This document shows positions 7,086-22,901 of a stretch of DNA of 64,000 nt, piece by piece; position 1 is the stretch's first letter, and each line of letters begins with the position of its first letter. The notes under the pieces are model-generated. The model did not search any database. It was given only the letters and a program-made list of their open reading frames with translations, and was not told the DNA's origin. This DNA is from Candidatus Omnitrophota bacterium (GTDB taxonomy: Bacteria; Omnitrophota; Gorgyraeia; Pluralincolimonadales; Pluralincolimonadaceae). The translations under genes were made by a program, and so were the position numbers. Location of the stretch: assembly GCA_028716565.1 (NCBI GenBank), contig JAQUPL010000003.1, positions 66,029 to 130,028 of the forward strand, read 5' to 3'.

Positions 7086-8203
7086 AAAACCAGGGTAAAA
7101 GCGGCATCGGCCGGGTCATCATCGGGAAATACGGCAATTTAATAGGCCTTGTTGTTTTGATAGTCCTGACGACGATATTGACGAACGGCATGTTCTTTAC
7201 CCAGAGGAACCTTATTAATGTCCTGCGCCAGGTATCGGTGAACGGCATACTTGCCGTCGGCATGACGCTGGTCATCATCACCGGCGGCATCGACCTGTCT
7301 GTAGGTTCTGTGGTGGCCCTGACCGGCATCATCGCGGCGTTGCTGCAGCCGCAAGGGACCGCGGCGGCGATCGTCCTTACCCTGTTGGCAGGAGCGGCGA
7401 TCGGAGGATGTAATGGTTTCTTCGTAACGAAATTCAGGATACCCTCATTTATCATTACCCTGGGCATGATGACGATCGCCAGGGGCCTTGCCTTGGTATT
7501 TTCAAAGGGCGAGGCGATATCAGGGCTTAACGACAGCTTCTCGGCTATAAGTGAAAGTTATATTTCTCCGTCCGTCTCCCTTACGGTCTTTGCCTTTCTA
7601 GCTCTCCTTACCGTATTCTTATTTGTTAAAGAAAGAAAAAGCTCAGGATACGAAAGAAAAATATTTACTTTCAATTTTATCGGCGCGATGAGCATCCTGT
7701 TTATTGCGGCTGCCGTCGCCGTCCTGGTATGGCTGATAGGGTTCCGCGGCATGCCCGCCGGTGTCGCGGTGTTTTTAGGTATAGCGTTCCTCGGCGCTTA
7801 TACGCTTAACCAGACGAGGTTCGGCCGTTATGTATATGCTATCGGAGGCAATGAAGAGGCGTCGCGGCTCTCCGGCATAAACGTCAAACTGGTCAAGTTC
7901 CTGGTCTTTCTCATCATGGGCGTCCTGGCCGCGGTCTCGGGCATGGTCCTGGCCGCGCGCCTTAATTCCGGCGTCCCGACTTCGGGAGTGATGTTCGAAT
8001 TGGACGCCATCGCCTCGGTCGTCATAGGCGGGACAAGCCTCTCCGGCGGTTACGGCAGCGTCGGCGGCTCGATAATAGGCGCTTTTATAATCGGGACGCT
8101 GAATAACGGGATGCAGCTATTGCACATAGATCCTTTTTACCAGGAGATCGCCAAGGGCGTCATAATCATAGGCGCGGTCCTGATGGACAGGAAAAAGAAG
8201 TAA
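7082..8203 (+). CDS. sugar ABC transporter permease (RbsC family)
   Basis: Multi-TM protein translationally coupled (ATGA overlap) to the ATPase gene; carries an extra AT-rich internal segment near 7560-7700. Confidence 0.75.
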   Translation: MKNQGKSGIGRVIIGKYGNLIGLVVLIVLTTILTNGMFFTQRNLINVLRQVSVNGILAVGMTLVIITGGIDLSVGSVVALTGIIAALLQPQGTAAAIVLTLLAGAAIGGCNGFFVTKFRIPSFIITLGMMTIARGLALVFSKGEAISGLNDSFSAISESYISPSVSLTVFAFLALLTVFLFVKERKSSGYERKIFTFNFIGAMSILFIAAAVAVLVWLIGFRGMPAGVAVFLGIAFLGAYTLNQTRFGRYVYAIGGNEEASRLSGINVKLVKFLVFLIMGVLAAVSGMVLAARLNSGVPTSGVMFELDAIASVVIGGTSLSGGYGSVGGSIIGAFIIGTLNNGMQLLHIDPFYQEIAKGVIIIGAVLMDRKKK

Positions 8204-8276
8204 ACCTTTTGTTCCGCCCCGCGTCTAATTTAGCAGGAAAAGGGAAGATTACCACACCTGCTAAAAGGAGGCGGAG

Positions 8277-8711
8277 ATGAAGAGCATAGCGATAGCGTTA
8301 GCGGCAGCGGCACTTTTAAGTTTTTCGGCGACGTCGTTCGCGAGCAGCTGGGATATGGTCGGGAAGGTCCTGACCGGCATCGAAGGGGCGAGGATATTAA
8401 CGGGCGGAAAGTTCGATGTCATCGGCAGCGTTATGGATGTTACCAACATCAGGCAGGACCGCGGCGCGACCGTTGTCGAAAAGCGCGTTTATGTGGTCGA
8501 GCAGCAAGCCCCATGCAAACGTGTCTGGGTACCGACGTATTCTTGCAGGGAAGAGTGGGTCCCGGCCCATTGGGAGCGCGACACGAGAAAAGGAAAAATC
8601 TTCATCGAAGGCCACTATGTGACGTATAAAGTCGAGAACGGCGGGTATTGGGTGAATGAATACCCCCGGCAGGAGAGGTACGCGAGACAGGGCAGCAGGG
8701 GCTGCCGTTAA
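8277..8711 (+). CDS. hypothetical small secreted protein
   Basis: Signal peptide MKSIAIALAAAALLSFSATSFA; RBS AAAGGAGG; Trp/Tyr-rich C-terminal half. Confidence 0.4.
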   Translation: MKSIAIALAAAALLSFSATSFASSWDMVGKVLTGIEGARILTGGKFDVIGSVMDVTNIRQDRGATVVEKRVYVVEQQAPCKRVWVPTYSCREEWVPAHWERDTRKGKIFIEGHYVTYKVENGGYWVNEYPRQERYARQGSRGCR

Positions 8712-8733
8712 GAAAAAGCATATATAGTTCTGC

Positions 8734-8767
8734 AACGGGCCGGATCTAACCATCCGGCCCGTTTTGT
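8734..8767 (+). terminator. Rho-independent terminator
   Basis: AACGGGCCGGAT-CTAACC-ATCCGGCCCGTT hairpin followed by TTGTT. Confidence 0.5.
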
Positions 8768-8841
8768 TAAGGCCCATAAAAAGCTGGATATGGCCGGAAA
8801 AATAAGGTATAATCTGTGCTCTTCTAGCCAAAGGTGAACCC

Positions 8842-9585
8842 ATGGGCGTTTTATCCAATATATTAATAAGTGTTTTTATCGTAAGCGCTATTTCGCTTAT
8901 AGGTATATTTACGCTGCTGTTCAAGAACAAGTCGCTCGACAAGTTATTCTTCGTGCTGGTGAGTTTTGCTACCGGCTCGATGCTCGGTGCGGCTTTTTTG
9001 GACATTCTTCCGGAGGCGGTGGAGAAGGCCTCGCCGGAAATGGTATTCGGGAGCGTGCTTCTCGGCATAATGGTCTTTTTTTTGATGGAGAAGTTCCTCT
9101 ATTGGTATCACTGCCACGAAGGGGAATGTGATGTCCACCAGTTCACGTATTTGAATCTTGTGGGCGACAGCATACATAATTTCCTCGACGGCGTGATCAT
9201 AGCAGCGGCCTTCTTAACGAGCACGTCGGTCGGCGTCATAGCGACAATAGCGATAGTGATGCATGAGATACCGCAGGAGCTGGGGGATTTCGGTATACTC
9301 GTCTACGGCGGCTTCAGCAAAGTCAAAGCGCTGATATATAATTTCATCACCGCCCTTACCGCAGTCGTCGGGGCGGTAATAGCGTATTTTTTCCTGGACA
9401 AGATAACGGGCTTTACGCCTTTCATGCTTGGGATCGCCGCGGGAGGCTTTATCTATATCTCCTGCACGGACCTTATCCCGGAACTTAACAAAGAAAGAAA
9501 GGTTACCAAGTCTGCACAGCAATTCGTCTTAATGCTGCTCGGAATGGGACTTATACTGGCCGGTAAGATATTCTTCAAAGAATAG
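8842..9585 (+). CDS. ZIP family metal (Zn/Fe) transporter
   Basis: Multi-TM protein with the ZIP signature HEIPQELGDFGIL and a His-containing segment. Confidence 0.75.
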   Translation: MGVLSNILISVFIVSAISLIGIFTLLFKNKSLDKLFFVLVSFATGSMLGAAFLDILPEAVEKASPEMVFGSVLLGIMVFFLMEKFLYWYHCHEGECDVHQFTYLNLVGDSIHNFLDGVIIAAAFLTSTSVGVIATIAIVMHEIPQELGDFGILVYGGFSKVKALIYNFITALTAVVGAVIAYFFLDKITGFTPFMLGIAAGGFIYISCTDLIPELNKERKVTKSAQQFVLMLLGMGLILAGKIFFKE

Positions 9586-9609
9586 CCTCCGCCTTAACCC
9601 AATAAAAAT

Positions 9610-11436
9610 ATGATAAAACAGGAAAACATAAGGAACATAGCCATCATTGCGCACGTCGACCACGGTAAGACTACGCTTGTCGACGCCATATTGAGGCAGA
9701 CGCACGTCCAGCGCAACATCGAGGAGATGGGCGAGTGCATCATGGACTCGATGGACCTGGAGCGCGAACGCGGCATCACGATACGCGCGAAGAACGCGAG
9801 CGTCACCTATAAGGGAGTGAAGATCAACATAGTCGATACTCCGGGCCACGCGGATTTCGGCGGGGAGGTCGAGAGGATCCTGCGCATGGTCGACGGCGTC
9901 CTGCTCCTGGTCGACGCGAAAGACGGCCCTATGCCGCAGACGCGTTTTGTCCTTCGCAAGGCCCTGGAGCTCGGCCTTAAGGCGATAGTGGTCATCAATA
10001 AAGTCGACCTTGCCGACGCGCAGATAGATGACGTGCTCAACAGGACATTCGACCTTTTTGTGGAACTTAACGCGAGCGACAAGCAATTGGATTTCCCGAT
10101 AATTTACGCTTCCGCCATAAGGGGCACCGCGACCGTCGACATGAGGCTCCCCTCGGAAAATATTTCTCCGCTTCTCGATACAATAATCAAGAAGGTAGAC
10201 CCCCCGAGTGTCGATCCGAAGGCGCCTTTACAGATATTGATCCTGGCCCTGCTGGGAGACTTTTATAAAGGGAAGATGGGGATAGGAAAGATCACCGGCG
10301 GCTCGTTAAAGGTCGGCAGCAATGCCGCGCTGATCCGCAAGGACGGCAGTAAAACAGTATCCAAGATCACGGCGATCCTGACATACGAGGGCCTCGAACG
10401 CATCGAACGCGAATCCGCCATAGCCGGAGAGATCGTGGCCGTCGCGGGTTTTAACGATATAGGGATAGGAGATACGATCACCGACCCGGAGAACCCCGTG
10501 CCGCTTACCCCTCCGGAGATAGACGAACCGACGGTCCAGATGACCTTCGGTGTAAATAAAAGCCCGTTCGCCGGAAGGGAAGGCAAGTTCGTCACTTCCC
10601 GCGCGATACGCGACAGGCTTTTCAAGGAGACCGAGACGAATGTCTCGCTCAGGATCAATGAGACTGAGGCCTCGGACACTTTTCTTGTATCCGGGCGCGG
10701 GGAGTTGCATCTCGCGATCCTGGTCGAGCAGATGCGCCGCGAAGGATTCGAGCTCCAGGTATCGCAGCCCGAGGTCATTTACCATGAAAAAGGCGGCATA
10801 AAACAGGAACCCTTCGAATTTTTGGCCATTGAAGTACCTGCGGAGTACCAGGGTTCGGTGATAGAAGAGGTCGGCCGCAGGAAAGGGAAATTAAAGCATG
10901 TCTCGCAGAGCGCGACCGGTTCGCTCCATCTAGAATACCAGATATCCACGCGCGGGATCATAGGGCTCAAGGGCGCGCTTATGACCAAGACACGCGGCAT
11001 GGCGGTCATAAACCACGTCTTCGACGAATATAAACCAGTAGAAGAGGGAGCGTTCAATACGGGCTCGCGCGGCTCGCTGGTCGCTATCGAACCGGGCGTA
11101 TCCACGGCTTATGCTCTGGAGAACGCGCAGCAGCGGGGCGAATTATTTATCGGTCCCAATGTAGAGGTCTATGAGGGGATGATAGTGGGAGAGAACCCGC
11201 GCGGCGAGGACATGCCGCTCAGCCCCTGCAAAATGAAAAAACTTACGAACATGAGGTCTTCCACCTCCGATATCGCGGTCGTGCTTACGCCGCCGAGGGA
11301 GTTGACCCTTGAGCTGGCTATAGAGTATATCGGGCCTGATGAACTTGTTGAAGTCACCCCGAAGAGCATACGCCTGCGCAAGAAGATACTGGATACGCTG
11401 GCCAGGAAACGCGCCGGCAGGGACAATAAGGAGTAG
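9610..11436 (+). CDS. typA: translational GTPase TypA/BipA
   Basis: N-terminus [27 protein letters not shown] and NKVD G-motifs; ~600-aa EF-G-like architecture. Confidence 0.9.
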
Positions 11437-11440
11437 AGAG

Positions 11441-11938
11441 ATGGCCGCGAATTTTTCTTTTGATATCGTCTCGGAGATAGACCTGCAGGAAGTCGATAAC
11501 GCCGTAAATCAGGCGAAAAAGGAGCTCTCCCAGAGGTTTGATTTCAGGGGCAGCAAATCCTCCATCGATTATAACCGCGAAGAGAAGAAGATAACCCTTA
11601 TCGCGGACGACGACTTTAAACTGCGCTCCCTCCAGGATATACTTAACGGCAGGATGATAAAACGCAACATCTCGATCAAGGCCCTTACCTATAAGGAGCC
11701 GGAGAAGGCGTTCGAGGGGACGTTCCGCCAGGTGATCGAGCTTGTGAGCGGGTTGGAGCGCGAGAAACAGAAGGAACTGGTGAAAATAATCAGGGACTTA
11801 AACTCCAAGATCCAGACCCAGATAGAAGGCGAAAAGATAAAGGTCTCTTCCCCGAAAAAGGACGACCTTCAGACAGTGATAAGCCACCTGCGCAGCATCG
11901 ATTTTCCCGTCGCCCTGCAATTTACCAATTATCGGTAG
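11441..11938 (+). CDS. yajQ: YajQ family (UPF0234) nucleotide-binding protein
   Basis: MAANFSFDIVSEIDLQEVDNAVNQAKKEL...RFDFRG matches the YajQ N-terminus; the track ORF 11339 is an upstream extension and the true start is the ATG at 11441. Confidence 0.8.
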   Translation: MAANFSFDIVSEIDLQEVDNAVNQAKKELSQRFDFRGSKSSIDYNREEKKITLIADDDFKLRSLQDILNGRMIKRNISIKALTYKEPEKAFEGTFRQVIELVSGLEREKQKELVKIIRDLNSKIQTQIEGEKIKVSSPKKDDLQTVISHLRSIDFPVALQFTNYR

Positions 11939-11981
11939 TGGCAGACAACCCTGTTTTTGTGATATAATTTCATATTACGAC

Positions 11982-12058
11982 GCGCCCGTAGCTCAACTGG
12001 ATAGAGCGTTGGTCTACGGAACCAAAGGTTGGGCGTTCGACCCGCCCCGGGCGCGCCA
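11982..12058 (+). tRNA. tRNA-Arg(ACG)
   Basis: Acceptor GCGCCCG/CGGGCGC, D-arm GCTC-AACTGGATA-GAGC, anticodon loop CTACGGA (ACG), T-arm GGGCG-TTCGACC-CGCCC, encoded CCA. Confidence 0.85.
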
Positions 12059-12071
12059 TTCTTATTTAAAA

Positions 12072-12539
12072 ATGAGCAAGATCGACGAAATATACATGTC
12101 CGAAGCCCTCAAGCAGGCCTACGAGGCGTTCGAGGCCGACGAAGTGCCTGTCGGCGCCGTCATAGTCCACGAGGGGCGGATAATCGCGCGCGCCCACAAC
12201 CAGATAGAGATGCTCAAGGATCCCACCGCGCACGCGGAGATGATAGCCATTACACAGGCCGCCGCGTATCTCAAAAGCGTGCGGTTGCCCGGATGTTCCA
12301 TATATGCTACAATTGAACCGTGTTCGATGTGCGCCGGAGCGCTCGTGCTCGCGCGCGTGAAACATATATATTACGGCGCGAAGGACCCTAAGACAGGGGC
12401 TTGCGGCTCGGTCTTCAATATCGCAGGGGGCAAGAAACTGAACCACAGGGTCAAGGCTACCGGCGGGATCTTGGCCGAGGACTGCGGGTCATTATTGACG
12501 GAATTTTTCAGGAAACAAAGGAAAAAAGGGAAGAAATAG
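12072..12539 (+). CDS. tadA: tRNA adenosine(34) deaminase TadA
   Basis: CDA motifs HAEMIAI and PCSMCAGAL; start chosen at the ATG at 12072 because the longer ORF overlaps the tRNA. Confidence 0.85.
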   Translation: MSKIDEIYMSEALKQAYEAFEADEVPVGAVIVHEGRIIARAHNQIEMLKDPTAHAEMIAITQAAAYLKSVRLPGCSIYATIEPCSMCAGALVLARVKHIYYGAKDPKTGACGSVFNIAGGKKLNHRVKATGGILAEDCGSLLTEFFRKQRKKGKK

Positions 12540-12602
12540 CTTGCGCTATCCCTCGGGACATACCCTCGGGATCCGCTGCGCTTCCTCCAAAATTTAGCTT
12601 GC

Positions 12603-12694
12603 GGAGAGGTGGCTGAGTGGCCGAAAGCAGTCGCCTGCTAAGCGATTGACCCGCGAAAGTGGGTCCCTGGGTTCGAATCCCAGCCTCTCCGCCA
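12603..12694 (+). tRNA. tRNA-Ser(GCU)
   Basis: Acceptor GGAGAGG/CCTCTCC, anticodon loop CTGCTAA (GCT), long variable arm, T-arm CTGGG-TTCGAAT-CCCAG, encoded CCA. Confidence 0.85.
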
Positions 12695-12784
12695 GTTTTT
12701 GAAGTGAACCGTCCGACGAGAACAGGTGGCGGTTTTGATCTGAGTTGTCATGGACGCGAACCCTAAAGATAATAGGAATCAGCG

Positions 12785-13546
12785 ATGAAGCAGTGGTACG
12801 AGTCATTATTTGAAAATTACGCCAAGAAATACGACAAGGAATGCTTTGTCCAGGGGACTGTTGGCGAATGTGATTTTATCGAGCAGGAAATAAGCCGGGA
12901 TAAATCGCTAAAGATCATCGACATCGGTTGCGGCACTGGTCGCCATTCGATCGAATTGACAAAAAGAGGATATAGCGTAACTGGTGTTGATTTATCCGAG
13001 TCACAGCTTATAAGGGCAAAGGAAAAAGCAAAAGAACTTGATCTGAACATTGATTTTCAGAAACATGACGCCAGAAACCTTCCCTTTGAAGGCGAGTTCG
13101 ATCTGGCGATCATGCTCTGCGAGGGTGGTTTTTCTTTAATGGAAACGGATGAGATGAATTTTGAAATATTAAAGAACGCGACAAAGGCGTTAAAAGATAA
13201 AGGCAAGTTTATATTCACGACATTGAACGGGTTATTTCCGCTTTTTCATTCCGTCAAAGAATTTTATGAGTCCGAGGCCAAAGAAGGCAATTCAGCGTGT
13301 AAAAATTGTTCTTTCGATCTGATGACGTTCCGGGACCACAACACCGTCGTGTTCGAGGACGATGCGGGAGCTAAAAAGGAATTAACCTGTAACGAGCGCT
13401 ACTATGTGCCAAGTGAACTCACATGGCTTTTAAAGACGCTGGGGTATAAAAAGATCGATATTTTCGGCGCCAAGCTCGGGGCGTACTCAAGAAACGACAA
13501 GCTGACGACAGGGGATTTTGAGATGCTTGTTATTTCTCAAAAGTAG
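12785..13546 (+). CDS. class I SAM-dependent methyltransferase
   Basis: Motif I IIDIGCGTGRHSIEL; acidic residue after beta-2 (VTGVDLS). Confidence 0.65.
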   Translation: MKQWYESLFENYAKKYDKECFVQGTVGECDFIEQEISRDKSLKIIDIGCGTGRHSIELTKRGYSVTGVDLSESQLIRAKEKAKELDLNIDFQKHDARNLPFEGEFDLAIMLCEGGFSLMETDEMNFEILKNATKALKDKGKFIFTTLNGLFPLFHSVKEFYESEAKEGNSACKNCSFDLMTFRDHNTVVFEDDAGAKKELTCNERYYVPSELTWLLKTLGYKKIDIFGAKLGAYSRNDKLTTGDFEMLVISQK

Positions 13547-13752
13547 AGATTATTGTTCCGTAAGCATCAATGAAAAGAAGCAAAACAAGAGGCATTTAAG
13601 ATATTTCTTTGGAAATTAATTATTGATGGGGCAGTCTAATGATATTTTCCAGCCCATGCTTCGCTTGCGGTAGATTTTTATAAGTAACTGTATTTCAGGT
13701 AGTTGTAGGGTTCGCATTTCGTCCACGACTACCCGCCAGTTTTGAGGATCAA

Positions 13753-15231
13753 ATGAAAAATTACGCATTCTGCAACACCTGCAAGGATGTAGTTCCGGTA
13801 GAGCACGTCGAAAAGGACGGCAAGGTCTACCTCCGGAAAAGCTGCCCCAAGTGCGGCACCGAAGAATACCTTATCTCCAGCGACGCAGGCCTCTATAACA
13901 AAAAACGCGATTTCATGAGCATCGAATGCGGCGCCTGCGCGCTCAATTGCCCGTCATGCAACAAGCACAAAGAACCGGACATCGTATTCATAGACACGAC
14001 CAACCGCTGCAACATGAATTGCCATATCTGCCTAAACAACGTCCTTTCGATGGGGTTCAAGTTCGAGCCGAGGATGGAATATTTCGACAGGATATTCAAG
14101 CATTACGCCCACCGCGACCCGAAACCCTACATACAATTATTCGGCGGCGAGCCGACGATGAGGAACGACCTCTTCGATATAATAAAGCTCGGCAAGTCAT
14201 ACGGCTACTCGATGAGGGTGGTCACCAACGGGCTCAAGCTTGCCGACGAGGAATATTGCAACAAGCTTGCCGACCTCGGCGCGATGATAAACATCGCTTT
14301 TGACGGCCTCAACCGCGAGATGTACACGAAACTGCGCGGGCATCCCGAGGCGCTCGACCTGAAATTAAAGGCTCTTGGGAACCTCGCCAAGCGAAAGAAG
14401 GCCAAGGTCGTCCTGATGAGCGTCGTAGATAAAGAACTGAACAAGAACGACATGGGCGAGTTCCTCAGTTACAGTCTTAAGAACCAGCATGTCATCAGGG
14501 GCATATATTTTATGCCTTTGATACACATGTGGGACGCTAAACAGCTCGATTACGACCCGGAGAGGACAACGCACGAGGATGTCGAGCATATGGTCGAGGA
14601 CGCGGTCGCCGGAGGTAATGTCGAGTTCGTGCCGCTCGGCTCGCTCTTCCTGACGAACCTCTACAAGATCTACGGTATCAAGAATATGCCTTTCCTCGGG
14701 GTCCATCCGAACTGCGAAAGCATAACTTATCTTATATCGGACGGCGAGAAATACGTATCTTTCTCGAAGTATCTCAAGACGTCGCTCTTCGCCCTCATAA
14801 ACGACCTCAGGGCGCTTGAGAAGTTCGCCGCGGGAAAATATAAAGGCGGCAAAGCCGGCTTCTCCGGGAAACTGGCCCTGGACATGAAACTTTTTAATAT
14901 TTTCAGGAAACACCTTAATTTCGGCGCTATCGTAGGGAAAAAGGGCCCGGCGGCTTATATCAAATGGGCCGGGATGATAGGGAAGCTGCTGACAGGGAAG
15001 AAGGCGAAAGAGGTATTAAAGAACGACACCAAACTAAAAGGCGTCCTGCAGATAATGATCCTGCCGTTCGAGGATTCCAAGACGACAGAATCGGAGAGGC
15101 TCTCGATGTGTTCCTCGTGTTTTGTTTATGTCGACCCGGACACAGATAAGATCAGGACACTGCCCACCTGCACGTGGGAAAAATACAAGAAACCCATCAT
15201 GAAGAAGGTCGCCGAGAAGTTCAATGTTTAA
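13753..15231 (+). CDS. radical SAM protein with N-terminal Cys4 zinc-ribbon (paralog 1)
   Basis: CNTCKD...CPKCG zinc ribbon, a second Cys cluster (CGACALNCPSC), radical SAM CNMNCHIC and a glycine-rich SAM motif (LFGGEPT). Confidence 0.65.
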   Translation: MKNYAFCNTCKDVVPVEHVEKDGKVYLRKSCPKCGTEEYLISSDAGLYNKKRDFMSIECGACALNCPSCNKHKEPDIVFIDTTNRCNMNCHICLNNVLSMGFKFEPRMEYFDRIFKHYAHRDPKPYIQLFGGEPTMRNDLFDIIKLGKSYGYSMRVVTNGLKLADEEYCNKLADLGAMINIAFDGLNREMYTKLRGHPEALDLKLKALGNLAKRKKAKVVLMSVVDKELNKNDMGEFLSYSLKNQHVIRGIYFMPLIHMWDAKQLDYDPERTTHEDVEHMVEDAVAGGNVEFVPLGSLFLTNLYKIYGIKNMPFLGVHPNCESITYLISDGEKYVSFSKYLKTSLFALINDLRALEKFAAGKYKGGKAGFSGKLALDMKLFNIFRKHLNFGAIVGKKGPAAYIKWAGMIGKLLTGKKAKEVLKNDTKLKGVLQIMILPFEDSKTTESERLSMCSSCFVYVDPDTDKIRTLPTCTWEKYKKPIMKKVAEKFNV

Positions 15232-16690
15232 TAGGACCGTAAAGACTATATGCCCCGCCTGCAACAAGGACCTCGACGGGAAGTATTACGAGGAGGACGG
15301 CAAGATCCTTCTCGAAAAGATATGCAGCGAACACGGTAAGGTGGTCGACCTCGTCTCTTCCGACGCAGAGATCTTCAAGGATAAGATCAGCCTCTTCGAC
15401 CATCTTAAAGATTACGGCTGCGGCATCCCCAAATGCCGCGAGGGTGTCTTTAAATGCGCGGTCCACCAAATGCGCAAATCCGAGCTGTCATTCATCGAGA
15501 TAACCACCCGCTGTAACATGAAGTGCCCGGTCTGTTACGCCGATGCCGATTCCAAAGGCAAAGACGTCCCGTATGACGACATCGTGCGCATGCTCGAGAC
15601 GATAGCGAAAGAAGACAAGGATACCCACGTCATACTGACAGGCGGCGAGCCGACGATACATCCGGATTTTTTTAAGATAGTCCAAAAAGTGACAGAGCTC
15701 GGGCTCCTGAGGCGTACCTTCATTGCTACAAATTGCATAACAATTGCTAATAAAGATTTTTGTAAAAAGGTATACGACGCCGGAATAAGGAAATTCTACT
15801 TAGCCTTCGACGGGACCGACCCGGAGGCCTGTATAAAATTAAGGGGAAGCCTTATCGCGTACGAATCCGTGCGCAAGGCGCTGCAGAATATCCGCGAGTT
15901 GGGCAAGGCATGGATAATACTTTCGTTTACCACATCGAAAGAATGGAACCTTAACAATCTTCCGGAAGCGATAAAGTTCGCGATGGACAACCAGGACGTC
16001 GTCAAGCGCGTTATGGTGACGACCGAGTGTTATTCCGGCCGCGTTACTGATATAAAGGACCTGGTCAATAAAAGGCTTACCGGCGACTGCGTGGAAAAAT
16101 TCCTCTGCGAAAAGATCGGAGCGAAGGCGATCACTTTTCCGCTCGCTGCCATTTATATTTTGATGAAACCGCTTAAATACGCGGGACTAATAGATGCGGG
16201 TAAATCGGCCTCATCGAATTTCAGCCCGATGTGCGGGCAGATGGGCATGATAATTTCGGAAAAAGGCAAATTATATTCGATGGTCGACCTCGTGGTGAAC
16301 GACCCGCGCAAAAATATTTACAAATGCGGAAGGGAGATAGACGCGCTCGCGGAAAAGATGGAAAAAGCAAACCGCCTGGCGGTATTCCTCTGGTACCTGC
16401 CGGCATATTTCTTCACTTTATTAAAATACATCAACAAGAAATTCCTTTTAAAGGCGATCGGGGCTTCGATCGCGTGCGGATTCAACTCCAAGAAGATCGC
16501 GAAGGCCATCCTCGGGGAAAAAAGAGTGGAACTTTATTACCTTTTGGGTTCGGATAAATATAATTTCGTTTGGGACAGGATGCCGTACTGCGCGACCCAC
16601 CATTACCGCATCCACCCGACGACAAAAGAGATCATAAAAGTCCCCGGATGCCTTGTTTTCGCCTTCAGGGAAGAGCTCCAAAATTATTAA
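15224..16690 (+). CDS. radical SAM protein with N-terminal Cys4 zinc-ribbon (paralog 2)
   Basis: CPACNK...CSEHG zinc ribbon, radical SAM CNMKCPVC and LTGGEPT; same architecture as the upstream gene and overlaps its end by 8 nt. Confidence 0.65.
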   Translation: MFNRTVKTICPACNKDLDGKYYEEDGKILLEKICSEHGKVVDLVSSDAEIFKDKISLFDHLKDYGCGIPKCREGVFKCAVHQMRKSELSFIEITTRCNMKCPVCYADADSKGKDVPYDDIVRMLETIAKEDKDTHVILTGGEPTIHPDFFKIVQKVTELGLLRRTFIATNCITIANKDFCKKVYDAGIRKFYLAFDGTDPEACIKLRGSLIAYESVRKALQNIRELGKAWIILSFTTSKEWNLNNLPEAIKFAMDNQDVVKRVMVTTECYSGRVTDIKDLVNKRLTGDCVEKFLCEKIGAKAITFPLAAIYILMKPLKYAGLIDAGKSASSNFSPMCGQMGMIISEKGKLYSMVDLVVNDPRKNIYKCGREIDALAEKMEKANRLAVFLWYLPAYFFTLLKYINKKFLLKAIGASIACGFNSKKIAKAILGEKRVELYYLLGSDKYNFVWDRMPYCATHHYRIHPTTKEIIKVPGCLVFAFREELQNY

Positions 16691-16756
16691 TTGACTAATC
16701 TATTTATTAGGATTACAATTTAGGCTGTTACTTGTCATCATAAGGAAATTATTTTA

Positions 16757-18424
16757 ATGTCTTATATAGTCTTCGCACGCAAATGGCGGCCGAAAGACTT
16801 CGATAGCGTCCTTGGTCAAGAGCATGTCACGACCACCCTCAGGAACGCGATAGCCCAGAACAGGGTCGCCCACGCGTACATCTTTTCCGGCCCTCGAGGT
16901 GTAGGAAAAACTACTACCGCGCGCATATTCGCCATGGCCCTGAACTGCAAGAACGGGCCCACGAAGGAGCCGTGCGGCGCCTGCGACTCCTGCAAGGAGA
17001 TATCGAACGGCACGAACCTCGATGTCATCGAGATAGACGGCGCCTCGAACCGCGGCATCGACGAGGTCCGCGCCCTGCGCGAAAATATCAAGTTTGCCCC
17101 GACCCGCGGCAAATATAAAGTCTACATCATCGACGAAGTCCATATGCTCACCGAGGAGGCCTTCAACGCCCTGTTGAAGACGCTCGAGGAGCCGCCGGCG
17201 CACGCGATATTCATCTTCGCGACGACGCGCCCGTATAAAGTCCCCTCGACGATATTGTCACGCTGCCAGAGATTTGACTTCAAGCGCCTTACCGTAAACG
17301 AGATCACAGGAAAACTTAAAGAGATAGCAAAGAGCGAGAAGCTCGAGATAGAGGAAGAGGCGCTTTACACTGTTGCGCGCGCCGCCGAAGGCGCAATGCG
17401 CGACGCGGAATCGATGCTCGACCAGCTCGTATCTTTCTGCGGGAAGAAGATAGACGCGGAGAGCGCCACCGCCGTATCCGGGACGGTGGGCCATGAGGTC
17501 CTCTTCGATTTCACCGAGAAGGTGATAAATAAAGATACGGCCGGGATATTGAAACTCGTAGACAGCGTGATCGCCAGCGGCAAAGATATCCCGCAGTTCG
17601 TGAATTCCCTGGTCGTGCATTTCAGGAATATATTGATCGCCAGGACTTCCGACGACCCTGAGGGGCTTATAGACCTCCCTAAAGAGATGATCGGCAGGCT
17701 GGCCGTCCAGGCGAAGTCTTTTTCCAACGAGACGCTGCTTTACATCCTCACGGTCCTGATGGGCGCGCAGGATTCGGTAAGGCGCGCGATATCGCAGAGG
17801 ATCCCGCTCGAACTCGCGGCGATCCGCCTTACCCGTCGCGACGACCTGGTCTCGCTTACCTCGATGCTGGACAGGATCGAACAACTTGAGAAGAAGCTGG
17901 GGAGCGGGGCCGGTAAACCCGAATCGAAAGCAGCGCCGCAGCCGCAGCATAAAGGCGAAAAGATATCCGAACCGGCCAAAGACGCGGAAAAGAAAGAGCA
18001 TTTTGATGTAGAAGTAGAGGTCGAGGCCACGGGACTTTCATTCGAAAGGATATGTGAAGTCTGGCCGAACCTCCTGCGCGAGATCCTTTCGAAGAAGATG
18101 TCGCTCGCCTTATTCCTCCAGCCCGGACAGCCGCTGAAACTCCAGGACAGCGTCCTTACAATAGCTTTTTCCAGGGAACACGTGTTCCACAAGGAGGCGC
18201 TTGAGACGAACGGCAACAGGAAGATGATAGAGAACGCCTTGAGCGGTATCCTGAAGCATAATGTGAGGATCGACATGAAGGTAGTCGAGGCGCTTGAGAA
18301 GAAAGTTTCGGTAGAAGACCTCCTGCAGGAAGAGCGCCAGGAAGAGACCCACGAAGTCGTGAAGTCCGCGCTCGAGATATTCGGCGGAAACCTCAAAAGA
18401 AACGATGCGTCACACCTGACATAA
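16757..18424 (+). CDS. dnaX: DNA polymerase III subunit gamma/tau
   Basis: MSYIVFARKWRPKDFDSVLGQEHV, Walker A GPRGVGKTT, zinc module CGACDSC, DEVHML. Confidence 0.85.
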   Translation: MSYIVFARKWRPKDFDSVLGQEHVTTTLRNAIAQNRVAHAYIFSGPRGVGKTTTARIFAMALNCKNGPTKEPCGACDSCKEISNGTNLDVIEIDGASNRGIDEVRALRENIKFAPTRGKYKVYIIDEVHMLTEEAFNALLKTLEEPPAHAIFIFATTRPYKVPSTILSRCQRFDFKRLTVNEITGKLKEIAKSEKLEIEEEALYTVARAAEGAMRDAESMLDQLVSFCGKKIDAESATAVSGTVGHEVLFDFTEKVINKDTAGILKLVDSVIASGKDIPQFVNSLVVHFRNILIARTSDDPEGLIDLPKEMIGRLAVQAKSFSNETLLYILTVLMGAQDSVRRAISQRIPLELAAIRLTRRDDLVSLTSMLDRIEQLEKKLGSGAGKPESKAAPQPQHKGEKISEPAKDAEKKEHFDVEVEVEATGLSFERICEVWPNLLREILSKKMSLALFLQPGQPLKLQDSVLTIAFSREHVFHKEALETNGNRKMIENALSGILKHNVRIDMKVVEALEKKVSVEDLLQEERQEETHEVVKSALEIFGGNLKRNDASHLT

Positions 18425-18456
18425 TCTAACGCATCCCGCTAAATCAAGGTAATCAC

Positions 18457-19059
18457 ATGCCCGGTTACACCAGGACTATGGAAAAATTGATATCCGAGTT
18501 TACTAAACTGCCCGGTATCGGCCAGAAATCCGCGGAACGCATCGTCATGCATATCCTCAAATCCCCCCGCGAGAACGCGGCCGCCCTCTCCGAAGCGATA
18601 ATAAAACTCAAAGATACCATCGTTTTCTGCAAAAGCTGTTTTAATTTAAGCGAAAGCGATACCTGCCACATCTGCGGCGACCCGATGCGCGATAAAACGA
18701 AGATACTGGTGGTGGAAAGCCCCAAGGACATCCTCGCCATAGAAAAGAGCGGGGCATACAGGGGCCTATACCACGTCCTCCTGGGAGCTATCTCGCCCCT
18801 GGACGGGATAGGGCCGGATGAGCTTAAAATAAAGGAGCTTATGCGCCGCGTAAAGTCGGATAAGATAAAGGAAGTGATCCTCGCGACCGATGCCGATACC
18901 GAGGGCGAGACGACAGCCCTGTATATTTCGCAACTCCTTAGGAATCAAGGCGTTAAGACGACTCGCATAGCCTACGGCCTGCCTGTGGGATCCCATCTCG
19001 AATACGCCGACCAGGCGACCCTCGCCAGGGCGCTCGAAGGCCGGAATCAAATTTCTTGA
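18457..19059 (+). CDS. recR: recombination protein RecR
   Basis: HhH KLPGIGQKSAERI, zinc finger C-x2-C...C-x2-C, Toprim region; a start at 18478 is an alternative. Confidence 0.9.
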   Translation: MPGYTRTMEKLISEFTKLPGIGQKSAERIVMHILKSPRENAAALSEAIIKLKDTIVFCKSCFNLSESDTCHICGDPMRDKTKILVVESPKDILAIEKSGAYRGLYHVLLGAISPLDGIGPDELKIKELMRRVKSDKIKEVILATDADTEGETTALYISQLLRNQGVKTTRIAYGLPVGSHLEYADQATLARALEGRNQIS

Positions 19060-19126
19060 CACAAACCCCCGCCTCTGGTAAAATTTAGTCCTAACCTACC
19101 CGTTTTCATCCAATAAGGAGGCCTTT

Positions 19127-19927
19127 TTGAGGGTCATTAGGGCGGTTGGCCAGGGTTTAAGCATAACCCACAGGGGATGGCCTATAATAGCGGTTATTTT
19201 TATCTTTTACGCAGCCGTTAGGTTCTTTGCGGCCCCGAACGACGCCATCCCTCCTTATATGAAAAAAATGGGGGATTGGGGAGCTACCGTAGTCATCTTC
19301 GCGGCGCTGGTGCTGGGCTTCAACTATCTTCTCGCGGGCGCGCAGATATTCGCGAGGGACGCGATAAGAGAGAGGCGTTTCGGGTTTAATGGGTTCTTCG
19401 GGAATTGCAGCAGGTTTTTCCTGGGGCAACTCGGCGTAAGCGCGGTCCTATGGATACCGGCGTGGATATTGGCGCTCGTGATGGCCGTCCTGATGGGCGG
19501 GGCCATGATGGAATCGAAGCTATATCCGTTGACCGCGGCAGTCCTCGGGGCCTTCTCGGCCGTCGTGGCGCTCCTGCTCGCGGTATTTTACGCCCTTATC
19601 TGCTTGTCGTGGGCGATAACCGCGGCTGACGGCAGGGGCATTTTCAGGAGCATATGGAGGAGCGTCATCTTCTGCGGAGAAAGATTTTTCAGCGTATTCG
19701 GCCTCCTGATACTGTTCTTTGTTTTGATGATCGTTATCTCCCTGGTCGTATGGATAGCTTACGCGTTCGTGGTACAGGGCCTCAGGCGTTTGGGGCTTGA
19801 CGGCCATATAATAATTTTACGCGAGGTCACCGGCTGCATGCTGAACGCCTATTTTTTCTTGTTCCTGACCTCGACGTTAATGTCGTATTACTTAAACAAC
19901 AGGAAGGAAGATGAAAGGTATAACTGA
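19127..19927 (+). CDS. hypothetical polytopic membrane protein
   Basis: TTG start with AAGGAGG RBS; five to six predicted TM helices; possible TTGACA-N17-TAAAAT promoter at 19056-19090. Confidence 0.4.
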   Translation: MRVIRAVGQGLSITHRGWPIIAVIFIFYAAVRFFAAPNDAIPPYMKKMGDWGATVVIFAALVLGFNYLLAGAQIFARDAIRERRFGFNGFFGNCSRFFLGQLGVSAVLWIPAWILALVMAVLMGGAMMESKLYPLTAAVLGAFSAVVALLLAVFYALICLSWAITAADGRGIFRSIWRSVIFCGERFFSVFGLLILFFVLMIVISLVVWIAYAFVVQGLRRLGLDGHIIILREVTGCMLNAYFFLFLTSTLMSYYLNNRKEDERYN

Positions 19928-20483
19928 AGTAGTCTGGCACGGAAGAGGCGGGCAGGGCGCCGTTACCGCGGCAAAGCTGCTGGGTGAAGCGGCCCTCCGC
20001 GAGGGGAAGAATCTCCAGGCGTTCCCGGAGTTCGGCGCTGAACGTACCGGCGCGCCTGTAAGGAGTTTTACGAGGTTAAGCGATAAGCCCATCACGATCC
20101 ACTGCTCGATAACGGCGGCGGATTGCATCGTGGTGCTCGACCCGACGCTCATAGATGTCGTCGACATCACCGAAGGGATGAAGGACGATACGTCGATAGT
20201 CATCAACACCGTCTTCTCGCCGAAAGAGATACGTTCAAAGCTCGGCATAAAGGGCGGAAAGATATTCACGGTTGACGCGACGTCGATATCGGTCGCGAAG
20301 CTCGGACGGAACATCCCGAACATGCCGATGGTCGGGGCGCTGATCAAGGCGACCGGGGTCATTAAGCTCGAGAACCTGACCGAGACGTTCAAAGAAAGTT
20401 TCGCGGCAAAGTTCACGCCTGAGGTCATCAAGGGCAACCTTGAGGCGATCGAGCAGGCGTATAAAGAGGTAAAGGCGGAATAA
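19911..20483 (+). CDS. porG: 2-oxoacid:ferredoxin oxidoreductase gamma subunit
   Basis: VWHGRGGQGAVTAAKLLGEAA gamma-subunit N-terminus; first gene of a gamma-delta-alpha-beta operon. Confidence 0.8.
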   Translation: MKGITEVVWHGRGGQGAVTAAKLLGEAALREGKNLQAFPEFGAERTGAPVRSFTRLSDKPITIHCSITAADCIVVLDPTLIDVVDITEGMKDDTSIVINTVFSPKEIRSKLGIKGGKIFTVDATSISVAKLGRNIPNMPMVGALIKATGVIKLENLTETFKESFAAKFTPEVIKGNLEAIEQAYKEVKAE

Positions 20484-20484
20484 A

Positions 20485-20793
20485 ATGGCAAAAACGGAAA
20501 AAGTAAAAGCACCCAGTTGGAAAGAAGTGGTCATAGGCGGAATAAATCCGGACGCCGGCAGCGCGATGAAGTACAACAGCGGCACATGGCGCACGTTCAA
20601 GCCGGTCTGGTCGGAGGAAAAATGCATCCAGTGCAGCCTGTGCTGGATAAATTGCCCGGATTCATCGATCATGATAAAGGATGGCAAGGTCTGCGGGATG
20701 GACCTGGTTCATTGCAAGGGCTGCGGGATCTGCGCTGCGATCTGCCCGGTGAAACCGAAGAAAGCCATAGAAATGGTCAAGGAAGAAAAATGA
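20485..20793 (+). CDS. porD: 2-oxoacid:ferredoxin oxidoreductase delta subunit (2x[4Fe-4S] ferredoxin)
   Basis: Two CxxCxxCxxxCP motifs (CIQCSLCWINCP; CKGCGICAAICP). Confidence 0.8.
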   Translation: MAKTEKVKAPSWKEVVIGGINPDAGSAMKYNSGTWRTFKPVWSEEKCIQCSLCWINCPDSSIMIKDGKVCGMDLVHCKGCGICAAICPVKPKKAIEMVKEEK

Positions 20794-21971
20794 GCAAAAA
20801 ACTATTAGCTTTGACAGGTAACGACGCGGCAGCGTACGCTATGAAACAGATAAACCCGGATGTCGTTGCGGCATATCCGATCACGCCGCAAACGTCGCTG
20901 ATGGAGAAGTTCGCGCAGTTCGTGGCCGACGGTGAGTTAGATACCGAAATAGTATTGGTAGAGTCCGAACACTCCGCGATGTCGGCATGCGTCGGCGCAT
21001 CGTGCGCGGGAGCGCGCGTGATGACAGCTACATCATCGCAGGGCCTGGCGCTCATGTGGGAGATAGTCTATATCGCCTCGAGCTACCGCCTGCCGATAGT
21101 GATGCCGTTGGTGAACAGGGCGCTTTCAGGCCCCATTAATATACATTGCGACCATTCTGACGCGATGGGCATCCGCGATTCGGGCTGGATACAGCTCTGG
21201 GCCGAGAACGCGCAGGAAGTCTATGATAACCTCTTGCAGGCGATAAGGATAGCCGAGAATTCCGATATCCTCCTGCCTGTAGCAGTAAATTACGACGGCT
21301 TCATCATCAGCCATGCGATAGAGAACATGTATCTATATGACGACGCAGAGGTCAAGAAATTCGTCGGAGAGTACAAACCGAAATACACGCTGCTCGACCC
21401 GAAGAAGCCGACGACATTCGGAGGTTTCGACCTCCCGGATTATTATTTCGAGCACAGACGCCAGATGGCTGACGCGATGTCAAAATCGGCGAAGGTAATA
21501 GCCGATACGGCTAAGGAATTCTCGAAAATATGCGGCCGCGAGTATAAATTCATCGAGGGATACAAGCTCGAGGACGCGGAAGTCGCTATAGTCGCGCTCG
21601 GGTCGACGGTCGGGACGGCGCGCGCCGTCGTCGACGAACTCCGCGAGAAAGGCGTCAAGGCGGGCCTGTTGAAGATCCGCATGTTCAGGCCGTTCCCGGA
21701 GAACGAAATAGCGGATGCCTTAAAACACCTTAAGGCGATAGCGATCCTGGACCGCGCTGACGCGTTGAACGCGGTCGGCGGGCCTTTATTCGATGAGATA
21801 AGGGCTGCGCTTTACAAGAAGTCGACAATGCCGGTCGTCAATTACGTATACGGCCTCGGCGGGCGCGACATGGGCCTCGTCGAGATAAATAAGGTATATT
21901 CGGACCTGGCTGAGATAGCCAAGACCGGCAAGGCCAAAGACCTTGTGACATACCTGGGGGTAAGGGAATAA
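20790..21971 (+). CDS. porA: 2-oxoacid:ferredoxin oxidoreductase alpha subunit
   Basis: Real start is the ATG at 20790, overlapping the porD stop (ATGA); the 91-aa Arg-rich N-terminal extension of track ORF 20517 is in another gene's frame and lacks an RBS. Confidence 0.8.
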   Translation: MSKKLLALTGNDAAAYAMKQINPDVVAAYPITPQTSLMEKFAQFVADGELDTEIVLVESEHSAMSACVGASCAGARVMTATSSQGLALMWEIVYIASSYRLPIVMPLVNRALSGPINIHCDHSDAMGIRDSGWIQLWAENAQEVYDNLLQAIRIAENSDILLPVAVNYDGFIISHAIENMYLYDDAEVKKFVGEYKPKYTLLDPKKPTTFGGFDLPDYYFEHRRQMADAMSKSAKVIADTAKEFSKICGREYKFIEGYKLEDAEVAIVALGSTVGTARAVVDELREKGVKAGLLKIRMFRPFPENEIADALKHLKAIAILDRADALNAVGGPLFDEIRAALYKKSTMPVVNYVYGLGGRDMGLVEINKVYSDLAEIAKTGKAKDLVTYLGVRE

Positions 21972-22901
21972 ATGGCAAACTTAAAAGAACTTAATAAGAG
22001 AAAAGAGCTACTCTCCGGCGGGCACAGGATGTGTGCGGGCTGCGCATCTCCCATAATCGTAAGGCAGATGGGCCTGTCACAGGAGATGCCGTTAGTTGTG
22101 GGAAGCGCTACGGGCTGCCTCGAAGTCTCGACGACGCCGAATCCTTTTACGGCATGGAACTCGAGCTTTGTGCATTGCGCTTTCGAAAATTCCGCCGCCA
22201 CCGTTTCAGGAGCTGAAGCGGCATACAGGTCGTTAAGGCGCCGCGGCAAGGTAAAGGAAGAGATGAGGTTTGTCGCGCTCGGCGGCGACGGCGGCACGTA
22301 TGATATCGGACTGCAGTCGCTTTCGGGCATGCTTGAGCGCGGCCAAAGGATCTTGTATCTTTGCTACAATAACGAAGCTTATATGAATACAGGCGTCCAA
22401 CGTTCAAGCGCCACGCCTATGGGAACCCAGACGACAACAGCGCCGGTCGGCAAGCAATCCATCGGGAAAAAACAGTTCCCGAAGGACTTGACAGGCATAG
22501 CGGTAGCGCATAGAATACCCTTTGTCGCGACGGCGAGCCCCAGCCACTGGAACGACCTTATAACAAAGTCGCAGAAGGCGCTTTCGGTAGACGGGCCCGC
22601 TTTCATGAACGTCATATCGCCGTGCCCGTTAGGGTGGGCTTATCCGTCGGATAAGACGATAGAGATAGCGAAACTCGCGGTCGATACATGCTTCTGGCCG
22701 CTCTACGAGGTTGAGAACGGCAATGCCTGGAAGCTGAGCTATAAGCCGGCCGCCAAGAAGCCGATCACGGATTACCTCAAAGCGCAGGGCCGTTTCCGCC
22801 ACCTGTTAAGGCCGGAGAACGCTTCTGTGGTCGAGGAGATCCAGAAGAGGATAGACGACGATTGGGCCGCGCTGTTGAAACGCTGCGGCGCTGAGGCATA
22901 A
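21972..22901 (+). CDS. porB: 2-oxoacid:ferredoxin oxidoreductase beta subunit (TPP-binding)
   Basis: Cys motif near the N-terminus (CAGCASP...) and the TPP-binding GDG-x-TYDIG region. Confidence 0.8.
   Translation: MANLKELNKRKELLSGGHRMCAGCASPIIVRQMGLSQEMPLVVGSATGCLEVSTTPNPFTAWNSSFVHCAFENSAATVSGAEAAYRSLRRRGKVKEEMRFVALGGDGGTYDIGLQSLSGMLERGQRILYLCYNNEAYMNTGVQRSSATPMGTQTTTAPVGKQSIGKKQFPKDLTGIAVAHRIPFVATASPSHWNDLITKSQKALSVDGPAFMNVISPCPLGWAYPSDKTIEIAKLAVDTCFWPLYEVENGNAWKLSYKPAAKKPITDYLKAQGRFRHLLRPENASVVEEIQKRIDDDWAALLKRCGAEA

Follow-up and report, generated by a model that had tools for sequence, protein, structure and literature searches.

Two tandem radical S-adenosylmethionine (SAM) genes, here named A and B, very probably encode a translationally coupled pair of proteins of the Tes superfamily, each member with four metallocentres. 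They lie in a window of 64,000 nt, the stretch from 66,029 to 130,028 of the forward strand of contig JAQUPL010000003.1 (assembly GCA_028716565.1, Candidatus Omnitrophota bacterium), and all positions below are those of this window. Gene A (13753-15231, plus strand) encodes 492 aa and gene B (15224-16690, plus strand) 488 aa, both with the Pfam domains Zn_ribbon_HMPTM and Radical_SAM and both annotated to date as "radical SAM protein" and nothing more. They are preceded on the same strand by the gene of a class I SAM-dependent methyltransferase of 253 aa (12785-13546, plus strand; Pfam Methyltransf_25, E 2.6e-20). The coordinates of the three open reading frames (ORFs) and the class of the methyltransferase are exactly as given by an earlier annotation made from the letters of the DNA (the sequence-only reading), which had joined the three genes in one cassette. 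The functional unit is the two-gene A-B pair and not the three-gene cassette, and the methyltransferase and its leader are in all probability an insertion unrelated to the pair. The window comes from a metagenome-assembled genome (MAG) of Candidatus Omnitrophota, and a stretch identical to it is also present in GCA_028711645.1.

Membership of the Tes superfamily

The best NCBIfam match of both proteins was Tes (NF045702), with 212.7 bits for A and 188.4 bits for B, and TrsS was the second. The curated equivalog cutoff of the Tes model is 450 bits and was missed by both proteins. When the model was calibrated, archaeal Tes scored 682 bits, the bacterial Tes-like proteins that keep the Met and Tyr of the archaeal signature 497-593 bits, and the members of the A, A' and B families 183-213 bits (A' being the second gene of A-A' tandems). 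The top sequence match in the PDB was 7TOL (GDGT-MAS) for A (E 1e-46) and for B (E 2e-42).

The structural comparison agrees with full-length membership. The AlphaFold2 models had a predicted local distance difference test score (pLDDT) of 92.1 and a predicted template-modelling score (pTM) of 0.91 for A, built with 49 homologs, and of 89.8 and 0.89 for B, built with 34. In Foldseek the model of A matched 7TOL with E 2.2e-35 and a template-modelling (TM) score of 0.78 over 510 columns, and the model of B matched 7TOM and 7TOL with E 7.5e-34 and TM 0.74-0.75. Overall, the full-length matches to 7TOL and 7TOM had TM 0.74-0.79, and the next fold was MoaA at about 0.35, restricted to the radical-SAM core. 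The four-domain architecture of Tes, formed by a domain of the rubredoxin-like type, an N-terminal cluster, the radical-SAM core and a C-terminal cluster domain, is matched full length by both models.

The sequence-only reading had offered Tes/GDGT-MAS as a guess. With the hidden Markov model check now run, the guess holds at the level of superfamily and fold and fails for orthology (212.7 and 188.4 bits against 450). Judged by the curated score and by the archaeal Met/Tyr signature, A and B are not Tes orthologs; they stand for two sister clades, deep and so far without a name, within the Tes superfamily. The two proteins share with archaeal Tes/GDGT-MAS (MJ0619; 7TOL, 7TOM; NF045702) the fold, the four metallocentres with the three Cys of the C-terminal cluster, and the length class of about 490-510 aa. 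They differ from it in being only 23-29% identical, in scoring 213 and 188 bits against 497-682 for real Tes, in the residues at the two signature positions, in the Cys4 rubredoxin site of A and the re-spaced N-terminal cluster motif of B, and in two indels common to both. A and B are moreover a translationally coupled heteropair, and their bacterial host is not known as a producer of isoprenoid ethers.

Bacterial Tes homologs as such were already known from BLAST surveys and from a sequence-similarity network of IPR034474 (PMC9433317). Those of Acidobacteria and Planctomycetes (Zeng et al. 2022; Garcia et al. 2024) belong to the same superfamily and have a proposed role in the synthesis of brGDGTs (glycerol dialkyl glycerol tetraethers of the branched type) or membrane-spanning lipids. 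The canonical bacterial Tes-like proteins (P0164, P0165 and P0207), unlike A and B, pass the Tes cutoff, keep Met and Tyr and group with archaeal Tes in the neighbour-joining tree. Bacterial homologs have been reported to cluster with gms; the A-type genes instead have a SufS-like desulfurase and a lipoprotein as recurrent neighbours. BLAST with a loose threshold therefore lumps at least three different bacterial lineages as "Tes homolog". In the literature searched, no account was found that sets the A and B clades apart from Tes, describes their coupled pairing or makes a lipid link in Omnitrophota.

The other families considered match A and B in part. TrsS (NF045646) gave 158.7 bits for A and 146 bits for B against a cutoff of 490, covering approximately positions 3-294 of the 441 of the model. 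The TrsS-like radical-SAM (seleno)proteins and a group of about 475 aa from Proteobacteria and Bacteroidota share the N-terminal ribbon, the N-terminal cluster and the radical-SAM core; they match only the N-terminal ~285 residues of A and B, and of the three C-terminal-cluster Cys that A and B keep, the ~475-aa group retains one. PqqE/SPASM, named in the sequence-only reading as a family to compare, is not supported as a home for the pair: the matches reach the radical-SAM core only, with 45 (A) and 49 (B) bits against a cutoff of 381, and no SPASM Pfam domain was identified in A or B. A SPASM protein or a maturase of RiPPs (peptides made on the ribosome and modified after translation) was likewise rejected, with core-level matches only and no conserved precursor ORF. 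A defence system was rejected as well, PADLOC giving just generic matches to the viperin core and the methyltransferase domain. Mss, confirmed in Thermotoga and Thermoanaerobacter, is also a radical-SAM protein of anaerobes with a proposed cluster-assisted Csp3-Csp3 coupling (PMC13459092, PMC13159169). Its kinship with Tes is described as no more than remote (PMC13159169); it was compared with A and B by description only, and was not the closest family to either protein in any search.

Metal sites and residue signature

Tes is defined by four metal centres (Lloyd et al. 2022, PMC9433317; 2026 review, PMC13459092): a rubredoxin-like iron site (C-X2-C...C-X2-H), an N-terminal cluster or [4Fe-4S]N bound by three Cys and one His (C73, C77, C80 and the His; PMC9433317), the cluster of the CX3CX2C motif, and a C-terminal cluster or [4Fe-4S]C bound by three Cys and the labile Met439. 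The first substrate radical is held on a sulfide of [4Fe-4S]C (PMC9433317, PMC13459092). Met439 and Tyr459 were completely conserved in 1000 archaeal homologs (PMC9433317).

The ligands were counted in an alignment of 232 sequences, with 118 in the A family and 40 in the B family. The sites were those of PMC9433317, with the Cys ligands of the Tes [4Fe-4S]C placed by alignment conservation and not from coordinates. The Cys/His ligands of all four Tes metal sites are kept in the 118 A-type and the 40 B-type sequences, and thus A and B keep the complete Tes catalytic apparatus. The three Cys of the C-terminal cluster are C321, C453 and C473 in A (118/118) and C337, C456 and C476 in B (40/40). 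This cluster is held by three invariant Cys with one iron site open or weakly held.

The rubredoxin-like site of A is Cys4 (C7, C10, C31 and C34), with Cys at the fourth position in 117 of the 118 A sequences. The site of B is formed by C10, C13, C34 and H37, as in archaeal Tes, and the fourth ligand in its family is His in 30 sequences and Asp in 9 (n=40). The N-terminal CxxC...CxxC ribbon that had been described for both proteins is therefore correct for A and not for B, where it is C10-x2-C13...C34-x2-H37 (3 Cys + His). The second Cys cluster described earlier was found in A and in B. The [4Fe-4S]N motif is canonical in A (C62-x3-C66-x2-C69-x2-H72) and re-spaced in B (C66-x4-C71-x6-C78-x2-H81), each pattern invariant in its own family. 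Both proteins also contain, as first noticed, the CxxxCxxC motif (C86/C90/C93 in A, C97/C101/C104 in B) and the (F/T)GGEPT motif (FGGEPT at 130-135 in A, TGGEPT at 139-144 in B).

Exceptions to the Tes pattern are the two signature positions. The position of Met439 is Leu in 111 of the 118 A sequences (L437) and in 38 of the 40 B sequences (L440), and the position of Tyr459 is Phe in 110/118 A (F457) and His in 39/40 B (H460). The M439A variant and the Tyr-to-Phe and Tyr-to-Leu variants of Tes stay active (PMC9433317, PMC13459092), and therefore the substitutions in A and B do not exclude a Tes-like chemistry.

Pairing, phylogeny and selection

A and B are 28% identical over 310 aa (E 4e-33). 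In a neighbour-joining tree with 200 bootstraps, a method in which long-branch attraction is possible, A plus A' was supported by 100% of the replicates, B by 100% and A+A'+B by 98.5%; archaeal Tes, bacterial Tes and the TrsS-like proteins all fell outside this last group. The two indels common to A and B with respect to Tes are 5 aa inserted ahead of the last cluster Cys and about 10 aa deleted after the rubredoxin domain. A and B are ancient sister paralogs; of the tandem paralogy in the sequence-only reading, the paralogy is confirmed by the sister clades, and a recent tandem copy is dismissed by the age of the duplication.

Among the fetched loci with room to judge, the A-type gene was single in 41, in an A-A' tandem in 11 and in an A-B tandem in 8, and B alone was found in none. 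No case of B without an A directly upstream was identified in the fetched loci. The B clade is small: about 8 of 1.84 billion representatives at 50% identity scored above 195 bits, after which the scores dropped to 170 bits or less. The source contigs of the B-clade and of the A-type matches were of equal size.

The stop of A and the start of B overlap by 8 nt (15224-15231, plus strand; ATGTTTAA), as previously read. L002-L005 and L084, L009 (Auribacterota) and L014 (Verrucomicrobiia) keep an overlap of 8, 11 or 20 nt, locus numbers denoting here the fetched loci. The overlap is thus kept across three phyla, and the A-A' pairs have instead a 16-nt gap. The A-B overlap is a translational coupling. 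The ratio of nonsynonymous to synonymous substitution rates (dN/dS) of B is 0.08, a purifying selection like that of the housekeeping neighbours. Obligate co-function of A and B is therefore supported by the constant pairing, the conserved overlap and the purifying selection on B.

Gene A is hypervariable with respect to its surroundings. Its synonymous divergence (dS) against L004 is 2.15 and saturated along the whole gene, and typA, tadA, B, dnaX and recR have dS 0.41-0.78, with dN/dS about 0.10 for all of them and for A. The A alleles of four close relatives are 66-71% identical (83% between the window and L002), and those of B 77-93% in the comparison of L002-L005. This looks like a repeated allele replacement of gene A with breakpoints at the tRNA-Ser junction and at the A/B junction. 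Relaxed selection was rejected as the cause of the divergence, since dN/dS matches that of the neighbours and dS is saturated.

Some Planctomycetota are rich in A-type paralogs. MAG VGYV01 contains at least 7 copies on 6 contigs (L027, L029, L034, L043, L044 and L060), and three A-type loci (L032, L048 and L064) lie on one scaffold of 5.97 Mb, also from Planctomycetota. In L084 a protein of 501 aa (11028-12533) that carries a Thy1 (ThyX) domain has its start within the last part of B, like a third gene of the operon. This length seems large for a ThyX-type protein.

The methyltransferase and its leader

The methyltransferase and its leader lie in a segment of about 1.03 kb (12700-13732, plus strand), delimited by the blastn breakpoints against L004, that comprises the methyltransferase and non-coding DNA of low G+C content (0.39-0.46 within the segment and 0.49-0.58 in the flanks). 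The left boundary is the 3' end of tRNA-Ser(GCT) (12603-12694, plus strand; identified by ARAGORN, Rfam tRNA 59 bits, fold z = -4.0). The comparison with L004 gave two blocks, 8681-12700 of the window with 3990-7985 of L004 and 13733-20762 with 7974-14973, and therefore the same 12 nt of L004 (7974-7985) match both ends of the window-specific segment. L004 is the empty site: the start codon of A lies about 22 nt past tRNA-Ser, with no methyltransferase and no long spacer. The flanking proteins of the window and of L004 are 92-97% identical, and the gene order typA-yajQ-tadA-tRNA-Ser(GCT)-A-B-dnaX-recR-membrane protein-porGDAB is kept in the related Omnitrophota loci.

The segment is bordered by a direct repeat, CCGCCAGTTTT. 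The left copy (12689-12699, plus strand) comprises the last 6 nt of tRNA-Ser and 5 nt of its trailer, and the right copy (13733-13743, plus strand) lies inside a degenerate copy of the 3' part of the tRNA (13707-13743, plus strand; T-loop GGGTTCGCAT ... CCGCCAGTTTT), identified by repeat search and local alignment. The similarity between the borders runs, more weakly, into the T-loop (GGGTTCGAAT against GGGTTCGCAT). The local alignment of the borders scored 23 against 14.8 +/- 2.0 for shuffled sequences, a value reached by 8 of 2000 shuffles and by 3 of 1200 genomic windows.

The same junction is occupied differently in other relatives. L005 (5484-8000) carries another insert of 2.5 kb at the tRNA-Ser/A junction, encoding an MBOAT/AlgI-like membrane acyltransferase and an SGNH-like protein, both judged by motifs alone, and L002 and L003 have still other sequences upstream of A. 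The tRNA-Ser/A junction is an insertion hotspot. The insertion resembles tRNA-associated genomic islets in its position exactly at the tRNA 3' end, in the direct repeat that includes the tRNA terminus, in its lower G+C content, in the empty site of one relative (L004) and in the alternative cargo of another (L005). It differs from them in being only about 1 kb long, in having no integrase or other mobility gene within 12700-13732, where the methyltransferase is the only convincing ORF, and in its cargo, an ancient and strongly constrained Omnitrophota gene and not obviously foreign DNA.

Relatives of the methyltransferase form more than 120 clusters with 83-95% identity in many Omnitrophota bins, and were also identified in bins labelled Pacebacteria, Phycisphaerae and Verrucomicrobiota. 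For this protein all NCBIfam models stay below their cutoffs. Elsewhere the gene is solitary, in a neighbourhood that differs in each genome (after TrkH, after FeoB, or beside a GH172 gene; L086, L089 and L090 are among these loci), and no Tes-like gene lies beside it in the related loci examined. The DNA homology to the other copies is confined to the ORF (12785-13545), with 80-85% identity, so that the leader is not carried along with the methyltransferase. The G+C content of the gene (0.41-0.47) has a narrower spread than that of its hosts (0.35-0.55). The low G+C content and the tRNA insertion had raised the question of a recent transfer of foreign DNA, which was judged the less likely course, since the copies are about 87% identical in amino acids and only about 80% in nucleotides and the gene is common in Omnitrophota. 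These patterns of identity and position suggest an old, strongly constrained gene that relocates.

The leader (13547-13752, plus strand) is a composite of a spacer within the insertion (13547-13732) and of the original tRNA-trailer and ribosome-binding region before A (13733-13752). The latter contains a Shine-Dalgarno-like GAGGA (13744-13748, plus strand), read from the sequence, with AGGAG at the equivalent place of L004. The gap of 206 nt is real, with a G+C content of about 0.39-0.42 in windows of 300 nt, and so is the hairpin noted at its end (GGTAGTTGT at 13698-13706 with ACGACTACC at 13725-13733, followed by CGCCAGTTTT). The properties attributed to them did not stand. The leader had been called long and structured; its fold is no more stable than that of shuffled sequence (z = -0.80, with 36 of 200 shuffles folding as well), and the comparison is the z of -4.0 of the adjacent real tRNA-Ser. 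The hairpin had been proposed as an attenuator; alone it has z = -1.21 (a stability matched by 30 of 200 shuffles), it is not among the calls of the terminator scan, there are only 4 U, the first of them 6 nt past the stem, and its 3' arm falls within the degenerate tRNA-3' copy. The Rfam scan that had been advised for the leader gave no match even at E <= 1, and the leader is not conserved, being absent with the methyltransferase elsewhere and upstream of A in L002-L005. A riboswitch or attenuator was thus rejected by Rfam, by the terminator scan and by folding against shuffles.

The reading of methyltransferase, A and B as one biosynthetic cassette, with the hairpin of the 206-nt leader attenuating the downstream genes, is accordingly very improbable. 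It has in its favour that the three genes and tRNA-Ser are on one strand, so that read-through co-transcription is possible in this genome, and that a 9-bp hairpin followed by UUUU lies just upstream of the ribosome-binding site. Neither the three-gene cassette nor the attenuator is supported, because the methyltransferase and leader are missing in the syntenic L004 and replaced by something else in L005, the methyltransferase occupies unrelated contexts without a Tes-like partner in other genomes and its DNA homology ends at the ORF, and the leader tests were negative. The sequence-only reading had named the absence of the arrangement from related genomes as what would speak against it; this absence was found for the three-gene cassette and not for the A-B pair. 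Recognizing the insertion spares the testing of a wrong three-gene construct.

Possible function of the pair

By analogy with GDGT-MAS, the A-B pair may couple lipid tails, a function to which a chance approaching even is given; all functional claims on A and B rest on homology. Each enzyme would bind a lipid alkyl tail in a hydrophobic tunnel, cleave SAM and abstract hydrogen from an unactivated terminal sp3 carbon, and a C-S bond to a sulfide of the C-terminal cluster would keep the carbon radical in store until a second SAM cleavage led to the formation of the C-C bond. The products would be macrocyclic or membrane-spanning (bolaform) bacterial lipids, and A and B could act as a complex or in two successive or regiochemically distinct couplings. 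A division of labour has a precedent in the two Tes homologs of M. acetivorans, whose product spectra differ (PMC8941075). The more specific proposal, a heteromeric bacterial tetraether/bolalipid synthase of Omnitrophota, Auribacterota and some Verrucomicrobiota that is distinct from archaeal Tes and from bacterial Mss, is tentative and rather unlikely.

The source of bacterial membrane-spanning lipids (brGDGTs and relatives) has long been debated, and the pair is a compact two-gene candidate. Lipids of the brGDGT type serve widely as proxies in palaeoclimate work. Their source has repeatedly been sought in bacterial Tes homologs, and A and B keep the full set of catalytic metallocofactors yet fail the archaeal signature. 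If the proposal were true, membrane-spanning brGDGT-like lipids of anoxic waters and sediments would have an overlooked source in these abundant, uncultured anaerobic nanobacteria, and a third and broader enzyme lineage of this kind would be formed by the A-type genes that stand alone or beside a desulfurase in Planctomycetota and others.

Several observations weigh against lipid coupling. Both proteins fall below the Tes cutoff and both carry substitutions at the Met439 and Tyr459 positions. No bacterial Tes homolog has been experimentally shown to make membrane-spanning lipids (PMC11868695), and the known bacterial producers use Mss, mostly without Tes homologs (PMC13159169). No lipid-biosynthesis genes were identified in the 64-kb window, and the neighbours of the A-B pair differ between genomes: an LpxL-like acyltransferase, a PMT/ArnT-like glycosyltransferase and an Aas-like acyltransferase lie near distant A-B loci and none of them recurs. 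Finally, A-type genes elsewhere accompany a cysteine desulfurase, which hints at another chemistry.

This desulfurase was identified by clustering all the ORFs around the A-type genes of 78 loci. It is a divergent SufS-like protein (Aminotran_5 1e-87; SufS 286-317 bits against a cutoff of 475) with the pyridoxal-phosphate Lys and catalytic-Cys motifs present, and it lies directly beside A-type genes in 14 loci. A protein of about 200 aa with a lipoprotein-type signal accompanies it in 11 loci. The two families (F3 and F4) are arranged with the A-type genes as F4-F3-A-A' or F4-A-F3. The loci with these neighbours (L007/L082, L008, L010-L012, L017, L022, L030, L035, L036, L038, L040, L045 and L079) span Omnitrophota, Sumerlaeota, Brocadiia, Acidobacteriota, other Planctomycetota and Desulfobacterota, at least five phyla in all. 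The desulfurase was present in 5/5 A-A' loci with upstream sequence and in 0/8 A-B loci, and none was identified in the 64-kb window. The lipoprotein-like protein, too, was in no case a neighbour of an A-B pair. Two further neighbour "families" (one of 26 loci, one of 250-aa proteins) were discarded as antisense shadow ORFs in GC-rich genomes.

Because A-type genes elsewhere adjoin the SufS-like desulfurase, sulfur insertion has to be weighed. A and B would then stop at the C-S intermediate or exploit it, with the C-terminal [4Fe-4S] sacrificed to supply the sulfur, as in LipA, BioB and MiaB; a hydrophobic substrate would be thiolated or thioether-linked and the cluster rebuilt by the dedicated desulfurase. 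Besides the recurrent desulfurase and lipoprotein, this agrees with the Tes intermediate, a lipid-S-cluster adduct (PMC9433317, PMC13459092), and with the replacement of the protective Met439 ligand by Leu in nearly all A and B sequences. It is nevertheless unlikely, since the desulfurase is missing from every A-B locus and from the window, Tes M439A still forms C-C bonds (PMC9433317), and a desulfurase beside a three-cluster enzyme may serve cluster assembly only. Slightly more credible, though still improbable, is a substrate other than a lipid tail: a cofactor, a pterin-like molecule (after the old HMPTM or class D methylase label), a RiPP peptide, or some other hydrophobic metabolite, for example a polyprenyl, quinone or hopanoid. 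Relatives are labelled "7,8-dihydro-6-hydroxymethylpterin dimethyltransferase" in the source databases, and A and B are very distant from characterised Tes and have no lipid gene context. The pterin-methylase assignment of MJ0619, however, was not reproducible and its structure has a lipid tunnel (PMC9433317). A peptide substrate is opposed by the lack of a SPASM domain, by RiPP-maturase matches confined to the radical-SAM core and by the lack of a conserved small ORF, the leader being missing in relatives, and the PADLOC matches are to the generic core only.

It is also conceivable that only one partner is catalytic, with B a degenerate scaffold or regulator of A, or the reverse. B is never alone in the fetched loci and its clade is very small, its [4Fe-4S]N is re-spaced and the fourth rubredoxin ligand is Asp in 9 of its 40 members. 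None of the 40 B sequences, however, has lost CX3CX2C, GGEPT or any cluster ligand, and the selection on B is as strong as that on the housekeeping neighbours, which makes this arrangement quite improbable. Lipid coupling remains the preferred reading of the pair.

Other features of the window

Directly upstream of tadA (12072-12539) lies tRNA-Arg(ACG) (11982-12058), an adjacency kept in the relatives L004 (7270-7824) and L005 (4738-5357). The tRNA adenosine deaminase TadA acts on this tRNA. Three further radical-SAM genes were identified in the window (3081-4526, 41132-42289 and 45047-46336), two of them with B12-binding domains (Pfam). The region 48683-53607 comprises a fusion of 1047 aa between a NuoF-like protein (Complex1_51K) and a pyridine-nucleotide-disulphide oxidoreductase, followed by the large subunit of an [FeFe]-hydrogenase, and POR genes are located at 19911-22901. 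The hydrogenase/NuoF-like region and the POR genes are consistent with a fermentative anaerobe.

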